Shown: positions 1 to 1,797 of the stretch, in pieces
Layout: every line of letters starts with the position of its first letter
Position numbering within the stretch: the stretch's first letter is position 1
NCBI RefSeq assembly: GCF_035633935.1
Contig: NZ_DASQDY010000434.1
Coordinates: 1,007 to 65,006 of the forward strand
Direction of reading: 5' to 3'
Source of the DNA: Archangium sp.
GTDB lineage: Bacteria; Myxococcota; Myxococcia; Myxococcales; Myxococcaceae
DNA length: 64,000 nucleotides
Translations under genes and position numbers: made by a program
The notes under the pieces: model-generated
Seen by the model: only the letters and a program-made list of their open reading frames with translations
Told to the model about the DNA's origin: nothing
Database searches by the model: none

Positions 1-1797
1 CCGGTCCACCCTGGCAGGGTCGATGTTGAGGCCCGTGGTCGGCGGCAGGGCCGCGTGTGTCGTCACGCCGAAGCGGTCACTGTTGTCATTCAGGACCACG
101 CCGCACAAGGGCTCTGGAGGACCCTGGGGCGTCGGGTGCACCCGGTCGAAGGAGATGTAGACCCGATCCGGGAAGACCCTCGCCTCTCCGGTCACCCTCA
201 ATCCCGTTTCATCCTGCAGGATGAGCATGCCCTCCATGGGCCCACTCTTGACGTTGACCGCGTTGCAGTCCTGCGGCGGGACCGAGCCCGCGCAGGTGAC
301 GGTCATCAGTCGGACTTCCATGATGGGATCGAGACCCAGGCGACTGGCCGTGGCGCGGGCTTCGGGAGGGCACTGCTCGAGGATGCGGCCCATGTCGGGA
401 CGTACGGGCGCGCTCGCACAGGCCGCCAGGTGGGCTGAGGCGGCCCAGGTGCACAGCAGCGCGCACAGCCCACGGGTGGGCTGGAAGGAGGTGTCATCGG
501 CACGGCTGGAGGAAAACATGGGGTGGAGTCCTTTCTCGAGGCTGTCCGCGCCGGAGCACGCCACCTCCACGGCGGACGCATATCCGGCGCGAACAACCTT
601 CCACACTACTCCGAGCAGCACCCACCCGAGGGCGAGCACCAGCAGTGCCACTCCCCCATACCACCGCCACCCCGGCGACTTCCGTGCGCCCTCTGGTTGC
701 CCGTGCCCGGCCGGGGAAGGGGCCTCTGCCACTTGCTCCTCGGGAGGTGGCACGGAGCCCTCCTCAGGTCGAGGCGTGGTTTCCTCCGGCTGCCGAGCCG
801 GTTCTCCTCCCGTGCCCAGGGCGGCCCTCGGCCGCTTGATCGCCAGGGCCGCGGCCTCCGAGGGCTCCGCGAAGGCGTACGGCACCGTCCAGGGCTCCGT
901 CTTCCCCTCTGCTTCCAACATCCGCATCAGCTCCTCGTGGACGGCCCGGGCACTCGGAGGGCGCTGCTCCGGCTTCTTCGCCAGCAGCCGCAGCGTCAGG
1001 TCGTTCAGGCCCGGCGGCACTCGCGGGTCGAGCCGCAGGGGCGGCACCGGTGGCAGCGACTCGATGGCGAGCGCGAGCACCTCCTTGGGCAGCCGGGGGC
1101 TGAAGGCGTGGCAATCCGTGAGGGCCTCGTAGAGCAGGGTCCCGATGCCATAGAGGTCCATGGCGGGATGGGCGGGCAGGCGTGCCCCGGACTCCCACTC
1201 GCCGCCGAGCAGGAAGGCCGCGCACTCGGGAGGCATGTTGTGGAACGTGCCCGGCGGCAGCACCTGTGTCAGCGTGTAGCCCCCCGGCAGGTACGCCGAG
1301 CCGAAGTCGGTGAGGAAGGGCTTCTCGTCCCCATCCCTCACCAGGATGTTGTCGGCCTTGATGTCGCGGTGCACCACGCCCCGCTCGTGCAGGTCCGCCA
1401 CCACCCGCGTCACCTCGGCCAGCTTGCCCACGAAGCGGTGCAGCGGGGCCTGCGTCCTCCACCGCCACGGGTTGAAGGTGCTGCCGGGGATGTAGTCGGT
1501 GACGACGAAGAAGAAGCCCGACTTCAGGTCGGGCCAGCGCCCCAGCTCGTGCACCCTGGGCAGGTGCGGGTGGCGGAAGTGCCCCAGCGCCACCGCCTCC
1601 CGGAAGGCCCGTTCATCTGTGCGCGTCTCGTCTTTCTTGCTCGGCGGACGCGCGGCGACCTTCATGGTGTATTCATGGCCTTCATGCTCCACGAGCAGGA
1701 CGGTGGAGAAGCCTCCAGAGCCCAGGTGGCGCACCACCCGGTAGTGCCACACGGTGTCTCCCGGCTGGAGCAGGTCCGGATGCGAGGGGCTCGTCAT
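1..1797 (-). CDS. Ser/Thr protein kinase with TM segment and extracytoplasmic C-terminal domain (3' end runs off the window; absent from ORF track)
   Basis: Manual minus-strand translation from ATG 1797: LGSGGFSTV Gly-loop, VHRDIKADNIL catalytic loop, DFG, Pro-rich linker, hydrophobic GGVALLVLALGWVLLGVVW. Frame stays open to base 1. ATGA overlap with the upstream DUF2381 gene. Confidence 0.9.
   Translation of the reverse strand, partial: MTSPSHPDLLQPGDTVWHYRVVRHLGSGGFSTVLLVEHEGHEYTMKVAARPPSKKDETRTDERAFREAVALGHFRHPHLPRVHELGRWPDLKSGFFFVVTDYIPGSTFNPWRWRTQAPLHRFVGKLAEVTRVVADLHERGVVHRDIKADNILVRDGDEKPFLTDFGSAYLPGGYTLTQVLPPGTFHNMPPECAAFLLGGEWESGARLPAHPAMDLYGIGTLLYEALTDCHAFSPRLPKEVLALAIESLPPVPPLRLDPRVPPGLNDLTLRLLAKKPEQRPPSARAVHEELMRMLEAEGKTEPWTVPYAFAEPSEAAALAIKRPRAALGTGGEPARQPEETTPRPEEGSVPPPEEQVAEAPSPAGHGQPEGARKSPGWRWYGGVALLVLALGWVLLGVVWKVVRAGYASAVEVACSGADSLEKGLHPMFSSSRADDTSFQPTRGLCALLCTWAASAHLAACASAPVRPDMGRILEQCPPEARATASRLGLDPIMEVRLMTVTCAGSVPPQDCNAVNVKSGPMEGMLILQDETGLRVTGEARVFPDRVYISFDRVHPTPQGPPEPLCGVVLNDNSDRFGVTTHAALPPTTGLNIDPARVDR

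Follow-up and report, generated by a model that had tools for sequence, protein, structure and literature searches.

Can a single reading frame supply both a membrane-anchored protein kinase and a separate lipoprotein? The question is raised by a Ser/Thr kinase gene on the minus strand at the start of the window, the 64,000-nucleotide stretch of DNA analyzed here (contig C434:1007-65006 of an Archangium sp. genome). A first-pass annotation of this DNA had pointed to a Shine-Dalgarno (SD) sequence, an in-frame ATG and a LAAC lipobox inside the gene, and had suggested that the gene makes either the full kinase together with a standalone lipoprotein, or a kinase that is cut internally by signal peptidase II. 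Based on a comparison with related genes, we propose that one gene probably gives rise to two products in one frame, the full kinase and, via internal initiation, a separate lipoprotein whose probable destination is the outer membrane. Internal initiation at the nested site is the firmer part of this proposal and, judged from the nucleotide conservation described below, is very likely; we are less sure of the lipidation of the short product.

On direct reading of the minus strand, on which all the window features described here lie, every coordinate of the earlier annotation proved correct: the SD, a gap of 9 nucleotides (nt), the in-frame ATG and the LAAC motif with its Cys at 420-418. The internal SD, AGAAAGGA, spans positions 529-536 and is encoded by (G)AG AAA GGA, the rare codons of an E-K-G peptide, 21 codons after the transmembrane segment of the kinase (TM1). 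Genome-wide, AAA accounts for 4% of Lys codons, GGA for 9% of Gly codons and CAA for 7% of Gln codons. The 9-nt spacer, CTCCACCCC, occupies 528-520, and the ATG at 517-519 is Met427 of the kinase. With the anti-SD ACCUCCUUUCU, the canonical sequence that is assumed here and may not be this organism's own, the duplex amounts to -10.1 kcal/mol, including an 8-nt match to the assumed 16S tail. An SD-like sequence is present at a workable distance from an in-frame AUG, GUG or UUG, as in the internal start of Escherichia coli arcB that is discussed below. The RNA around this site has a predicted structure of its own: a strong hairpin of about 60 nt at 539-599 ends just upstream of the internal SD, and the predicted fold places the SD in the loop of a 3-bp stem (z-score -2.07 over 161 nt). 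Only the closest paralogs share the peptide that the hairpin encodes, RAGYASAVEVACSGA.

What would the internal frame encode? After the ATG it reads MFSSSRADDTSFQPTRGLCALLCTWAASAHLAAC, in which a signal-peptide-like stretch can be delineated. A predicted n-region, FSSSRADDTSFQPTR (472-516; 16 residues, net charge 0), carries an Arg directly before the hydrophobic core; the h-region and lipobox, GLCALLCTWAASAH-LAA (421-471; 17 residues, mean Kyte-Doolittle 1.47), follow; and the Cys encoded by TGT at 418-420, Cys460 of the kinase, would become residue +1 of the predicted mature lipoprotein. The L-A-A-C at 429-418 conforms to the lipobox pattern [LVI][ASTVI][GAS]-C. Counted from the internal Met the Cys is at position 34, and in most relatives at around 40; positions of about 15-35 are usual in lipoprotein precursors, along with h-regions of 7-22 residues. 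The same architecture recurs across the family. In 60 of 66 members an Arg is the charged residue nearest to the h-region on its N-terminal side; the h-region counted from the internal start has a median length of 16.5 residues and a mean Kyte-Doolittle value of 1.56, and the lipobox is L/F-x-G/A-C throughout subfamily A. A twin-arginine signal was considered as a further family feature and rejected: S-R-R-C-A-L-L occurs in many relatives (L002, L003, L007, L009, L023 and L024 among others), the RR is not conserved and the corresponding residues here are T-R-G.

The stretch has counterparts among genuine lipoprotein genes. The Archangium genome contains several paralogs of the C-terminal 200 residues, some of them near-identical kinase fusions and two of them kinase fusions at 38% identity, and also small standalone genes whose lipoprotein signals are of the textbook kind, such as MPMKKTHPLPLCAAILLLGSGC with TSVPLRPD after it. 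Such standalone homologs, found in Archangiaceae and Myxococcaceae (e.g. C485:10838-11434 and L030), share with the nested frame the beta-rich domain, the homologous lipobox Cys and a mature start of the form C-x-x-P-x-R-P-D; unlike it, they are short genes of their own, lack a kinase and have canonical signal peptides about 20 residues long. Their signal peptides align with the h-region of the nested frame, and their lipobox Cys aligns in register with the one considered here, which is invariant in A1 (15 fused and standalone members) and also in A2 (42 members, mature domain). Two standalone paralogs lie in tandem in this genome at C485:10838-11600 (-), and the second of them shares the SD core of the nested starts, an AAAGGA located 6 nt upstream of its ATG.

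Is the nested site anything more than a coincidence of bases? In 62 family open reading frames (ORFs), outside the linker, 2.2% of in-frame ATG, GTG or TTG codons are preceded by an SD duplex of -10 kcal/mol or better; SD-like sites before an in-frame NTG occur about once per gene, so the site in this gene alone could be chance. It is the positional and nucleotide-level conservation across relatives that places it far beyond chance. The first-pass annotation had staked its reading on conservation of the SD, the start and the Cys in homologs; this check was run, all three are conserved and the reading stands unrefuted. We compared 79 unique fused relatives, drawn from Archangium, Cystobacter, Vitiosangium and further genera of this family. 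An in-frame nnA GGA N9 NTG lies 19-50 codons upstream of the conserved Cys in 63 of them; elsewhere in these ORFs, in 41,774 codons, the pattern is found once. At this place the two paralogs of 38% identity have GAG AAA GGA ACG CAG TCC GTG and GAG CAA GGA GCA CCG CCC GTG, alongside GAG AAA GGA CTC CAC CCC ATG in this gene. The codon before GGA is AAA (49 sequences), CAA (9), GAA (2), CCA, CGA or AGA, so that the residue may be K, Q, E, P or R while the third base is always A. The start that follows, always 9 nt after GGA, is GTG in 48 relatives, ATG in 10, TTG in five and CTG in none. This usage can be set against that of the family ORFs as a whole, where AAA makes up 12% of Lys codons, GGA 17% of Gly codons and CAA 21% of Gln codons, and where TTG and CTG make up 12% and 51% of Leu codons, respectively.

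The constancy of the glycine codon is especially telling. In every member of subfamily A the SD glycine is encoded by GGA, and the same constancy is seen in analyses that involved no selection on GGA. Five near-invariant Gly columns of the domain, taken from the same 64 sequences as a control, draw on all four Gly codons, GGA being used by 1-8 sequences per column. Synonymous sites are thus saturated; the SD glycine is nonetheless constantly GGA. Within the SD columns third codon positions are more conserved than first positions, and the bases between SD and start are variable. SD and start are preserved in homologs, as with arcB, and here an excess of conservation at synonymous sites goes with them. 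Where the exact pattern is not kept, the elements may be present in another guise: relative L070 retains AAAGGA in another codon phase with a 7-nt spacer, and distant kinase fusions from other genera, in other peptide contexts, carry GAGGAGG-N11-GTG, GGGAGA or AGGAGA before ATG, or GAAGGAG-N8-GTG.

Natural variants of the gene layout bear on the same point. P0013 is the sole member in which the domain directly follows TM1 without the second hydrophobic segment and lipobox, and it has neither SD nor start at the junction; P0017, a degenerate kinase remnant, lacks both the SD and a canonical lipobox. In L005 (G138:C34), from an Archangium-genus genome, a CAG-to-TAG change has placed a stop between the SD and the GTG (AAA GGA ACG TAG TCC GTG). 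The kinase is cut short after TM1 by this TAG (reverse-complemented locus, approximately 1,500-1,530), while the 217-codon frame downstream remains open and retains every conserved feature. The split is what an independently translated cistron would tolerate; as a single case, it may be a functional split, a recent mutation or a sequencing error. The nested design is also not tied to kinases, because non-kinase, membrane-anchored N-terminal modules fused to the same domain keep AGAAAGGA-N9-GTG as well (L027, L028, L081, L082 and, in the Archangium genome itself, C421:13948-15273 (+)). These modules consist of a signal anchor and a domain of about 130 amino acids, in frame with the lipoprotein-type domain, and in the C421 type a further site, GGAGG-N11-ATG, immediately precedes MKVLTLCIGLSASAC, a short canonical signal. 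Two further candidates proved of little use as natural separations of the two frames. P0001 (207 amino acids), called from the exactly homologous Met, was set aside as a natural standalone gene since its contig begins 17 nt upstream and is uninformative. P0012 (226 amino acids), from a metagenome bin, follows a kinase frame that is interrupted by a stop and a frameshift, possibly through assembly error, and was used for reading the SD only.

Several observations weigh against the proposal as a whole or against its lipoprotein part. A pattern search of the 748-contig assembly found no 16S rRNA 3' end, and the anti-SD is therefore an assumed one. The homologs are related to each other, so sequence counts overstate the number of independent events, which the codon controls offset only partly. 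The literature found on this family makes no mention of a short product. The signal peptide is atypical, its n-region being long (16 residues here, a family median of 22) with a net charge of about 0 where a positive charge is usual, and a strict PROSITE-type lipobox pattern fails at -4, where this gene has His and many relatives have Gln. Subfamilies B (L052-L062) and C (L029, L057, L059 and L061) keep the SD and start, yet have poor lipoboxes, Q/E/K-A-G-C and L-N-A-C, with Q, E, K or N at positions that normally exclude them; lipidation may thus not be general, and the short products of these subfamilies may be exported without it.

These last features are also the grounds for the alternative that survives best, in which the internal start is used and the short product is not a lipoprotein, but a signal-anchored or signal-peptidase-I-processed periplasmic copy whose Cys has another role. 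We regard this as unlikely for the gene at hand. The gene itself and all of subfamily A have the canonical L/F-x-[GA]-C, and the Cys is not merely invariant but coincides with that of standalone homologs whose signals leave little doubt about their class. Nor is the Cys needed for a disulfide, because the other conserved Cys residues of the mature domain are already even in number.

Could the conserved bases serve the full-length kinase only? SD-like sequences within membrane-protein genes have been proposed as pause sites, and AAAGGA...NTG might represent a translational pause for membrane insertion after TM1 or, alternatively, a constraint on the E-K-G...V/M/L peptide. In nearly all relatives the full frame has been kept open, and Met, Val and Leu are readily interchangeable in proteins, both of which would fit such an explanation. 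A pause, however, requires no start codon, whereas an NTG is found at exactly 9 nt in 63 of 63 sequences, with Leu always as TTG and Val always as GTG. A peptide constraint is ruled out by the residue before Gly, which varies among K, Q, E, P and R with its third base fixed as A. Moreover, SD and start go together with the signal-peptide-like segment and are missing from the member that lacks it (P0013), and L005 carries a natural stop between the two with the downstream frame intact. We consider a full-length product alone improbable, more so than a short product that escapes lipidation. Production of the full-length kinase in addition is a different matter: among the E < 1e-40 matches listed, all kinase-fused ORFs but one keep a single open frame despite many in-frame changes of linker length, and the retention of this fusion frame suggests that the long form is under selection too.

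The first-pass annotation had offered another route to a short product, in which signal peptidase II cuts the full-length kinase internally. In this scheme Lgt and signal peptidase II (LspA) would act on the internal lipobox of the precursor and leave a kinase-TM1 stub, and a lipobox with a hydrophobic segment is indeed present mid-chain. Both enzymes require their substrate in an N-in/C-out orientation. With a cytoplasmic kinase domain and a single preceding transmembrane segment, the N-terminus of the second hydrophobic segment would lie in the periplasm; the segment would enter the membrane from the periplasmic side, its lipobox facing the cytoplasm or never adopting the N-in/C-out orientation, which makes cleavage topologically unlikely. 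A variant in which TM1 and the second segment form a hairpin before LspA cleavage was rejected on the same grounds. Cleavage would also leave the conserved SD, spacing and start codon without explanation, and we hold it to be highly improbable. Thus the cleavage half of the first-pass suggestion finds no support, and its other half, a full kinase plus a standalone lipoprotein, is strongly supported by the joint conservation of SD, 9-nt gap and start in 63 of 79 relatives, by the alignment of the Cys with standalone lipoproteins and by the natural split in L005. A neutral relic, left when a kinase and a downstream lipoprotein gene were fused by stop loss and in which the old ribosome-binding site, start and signal peptide are still decaying, is scarcely credible: a fusion origin is very likely, since the domain exists as standalone lipoprotein genes, yet the features have survived at mature-domain identities of 21-50% (33-50% for most relatives) in several genera, with saturation at synonymous sites elsewhere, rare codons have been kept despite the codon bias of the genome, and this explanation is already contradicted by the conservation data, the divergence of the family as read from its sequences excluding a very recent expansion.

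How would a kinase and a lipoprotein be obtained from the one frame? In the mechanism that we propose, some ribosomes initiate at the ATG at 1797, coupled through an ATGA overlap to the gene upstream, which encodes a secreted DUF2381 protein, and would make a 626-amino-acid receptor-type Ser/Thr kinase in which TM1 joins the cytoplasmic kinase domain to a beta-rich domain in the periplasm. Other ribosomes would bind AGAAAGGA and start at the ATG at 519, producing a 200-amino-acid precursor with an N-terminal signal peptide. From the signal-like stretch and its homology we infer that this precursor would be exported by Sec, receive its lipid on Cys460 from Lgt and be processed by signal peptidase II, and that a mature lipoprotein of 167 amino acids, identical to the periplasmic domain of the kinase, would leave the inner membrane for the outer membrane. 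In Myxococcus xanthus, inner-membrane lipoproteins have Lys at +2 and matrix lipoproteins have Ala at +7 (PMC3222651). The short product has Ala at +2, with no Lys, and Arg at +7, on the basis of which the outer membrane is predicted as its location. The SD of the kinase itself is GAAGGT, weaker than the internal SD and dependent on the ATGA coupling; the short form may, because of this difference, be the more abundant product. Finally, the free copy might pair with the kinase-borne copy and with the secreted DUF2381 protein, linking the state of the envelope to kinase activity.

What kind of assembly could these proteins build? The beta-rich periplasmic domain, whose mature part begins ASAPVRPD..., covers positions 1-417 and continues 27 codons beyond the window. 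The 200-amino-acid short product matches no family in Pfam or NCBIfam, and a profile of the domain finds no match among PDB sequences. An AlphaFold2 model of the mature domain, built on a 42-sequence alignment, is mostly beta and confident, with a predicted local distance difference test score (pLDDT) of 92.5. Its best Foldseek matches are weak (E 1e-3, TM-score of at most 0.45) and fall on outer-membrane core-complex entries of type IV secretion systems (T4SSs): 9ngw, 7muq, 7spc, 7okn and 3jqo. Pfam TrbI (PF03743) gives a weak match in two of 42 members at E 0.078, below threshold. The DUF2381 protein was modeled at pLDDT 70.7; its best fold matches are chains of 7spb, 7oko and 7mue (E 3e-8 to 4e-6, TMt up to 0.56, for one domain), and four of 23 DUF2381 members weakly match Pfam DotH_IcmK. 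In naming the protein that each of these T4SS chains represents we rely on presumed identities rather than on the output of a tool. Taken as hints, the results are concordant with a VirB9-like and VirB10-like pair formed by DUF2381 and the kinase domain; all scores are below threshold, and they motivate, rather than establish, the idea of a trans-envelope assembly. Like VirB10 (TrbI), the kinase has a single transmembrane segment as its inner-membrane anchor and bears the domain at its C-terminus; unlike it, the kinase has a cytoplasmic kinase part, and no other T4SS genes were seen alongside. We mention, as a speculation that we think rather unlikely, a self-partnering trans-envelope sensor on a T4SS-like scaffold, in which a VirB10-like domain present in both membranes would co-assemble with the VirB9-like DUF2381 protein, and outer-membrane contact or its loss would switch the kinase, in at least eight modules per Archangium genome.

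The proposal has precedents, each of which it resembles in part. In E. coli arcB an in-frame internal start, detected by retapamulin Ribo-seq (Meydan et al.), releases the C-terminal phosphotransfer domain ArcB-C. This start has been confirmed by western blot and synonymous mutation as well as by start-site profiling, and other species conserve it (bioRxiv 10.1101/520783). There, as in the gene studied here, a membrane sensor kinase gene has a conserved SD-like sequence and an in-frame GUG or AUG at the boundary of a domain in its 3' part, and cross-species conservation of SD and start was likewise used as supporting evidence. The two cases differ in that ArcB is a histidine kinase and ours a Hanks-type Ser/Thr kinase, and in that ArcB-C is experimentally verified whereas the short product described here is predicted from sequence. 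They differ further in destination, as ArcB-C is cytoplasmic and without an export signal, whereas initiation within the kinase gene would bring a lipoprotein signal peptide to the N-terminus and direct the domain to a different compartment. The known internal starts of E. coli that alter localization act through loss of a signal sequence (bioRxiv 10.1101/520783); uncovering such a signal would be the reverse.

A second precedent is functional only. The arrangement recalls a complete lipoprotein gene nested within the gene of an inner-membrane-anchored protein, for which phage lambda Rz/Rz1 is the model: the SD, start, signal peptide and lipobox of the lipoprotein all lie inside the gene of an inner-membrane protein, and the inner- and outer-membrane products interact across the periplasm. 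Rz1 is encoded in the +1 frame and has no residues in common with Rz, whereas the nested start here is in the kinase frame and its product corresponds to the C-terminal third of the host protein; the spanin type of nesting, in a different frame, is not what is found. Phage lysis is at stake there and signaling here. The literature searched yielded no account of a lipoprotein nested in frame within a kinase gene. Closer to home, clusters of Ser/Thr kinase and DUF2381 genes in M. xanthus have been linked to yellow/tan phase variation (PMC3986340; bioRxiv 10.64898/2026.08.28.747804). They resemble the present locus in that a DUF2381 gene adjoins paralogous membrane kinases in many copies per genome; both papers treat the kinases as single products and, in contrast to our proposal, mention neither a nested start nor a lipoprotein.

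What are the implications of a nested lipoprotein for kinases of this kind? In-frame internal starts are an established source of additional protein isoforms in bacteria. Standard annotation gives all members of the family as single kinase genes, and known internal starts release a cytoplasmic domain, as with ArcB-C, or strip a signal, whereas here a hidden lipoprotein export signal would be uncovered. If the proposal holds, the domain reaches two compartments from one frame, as part of a kinase in the inner membrane and as a lipid-anchored protein that is probably in the outer membrane, and a class of lipoproteins is added that is invisible to genome annotation and to lipoprotein predictors. 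As judged by homology searches, the arrangement is fixed in a large paralogous family with at least eight copies per Archangium genome. It would offer a handle on envelope sensing by the many orphan receptor Ser/Thr kinases of myxobacteria, and the function of the DUF2381-kinase clusters tied to phase variation in M. xanthus would become directly testable.

The host gene itself has the layout of a receptor kinase. Its ORF occupies positions 1-1797, with the start ATG at 1797-1795, and extends past the window edge to a stop 82 nt beyond position 1 (contig C434 923-925), giving 626 amino acids. The Hanks-type protein kinase domain, at 931-1743, matches Pfam PF00069 at E 5.3e-24 over residues 80-350 of the 660-amino-acid open frame; its translation contains HRDIKADN and DFG, in agreement with the HRDxKxxN catalytic-loop and DFG motifs of this class, and the domain is cytoplasmic. 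TM1, WRWYGGVALLVLALGWVLLGVVW, spans 601-669 with a Kyte-Doolittle maximum of 2.37 in a 19-residue window and is the only strong transmembrane segment of the ORF, the hydrophobic stretch before the Cys being weaker (maximum 1.54). Upstream, at 1794-2726, lies the gene for the secreted DUF2381 protein (Pfam PF09544, E 2.5e-16), whose stop overlaps the kinase start as ATGA; a DUF2381 gene is located upstream of nearly all homologous kinases. The sole sigma-70-like site found is upstream of the DUF2381 gene, at 2775-2746. A sigma-70 scan inside the kinase gene revealed no internal promoter, a result that is uninformative since so crude a scan is ill-suited to myxobacterial promoters.

The family is narrow, as an exhaustive HMMER search of 1.84 billion representative proteins returned 17 clusters only. 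When 363 genomes of the same order were searched, matches were obtained in 102 genomes and in 15 of 87 genera. Named records comprise Archangium species, Cystobacter fuscus and Vitiosangium, and every genome of the window's own genus has at least eight scored matches.

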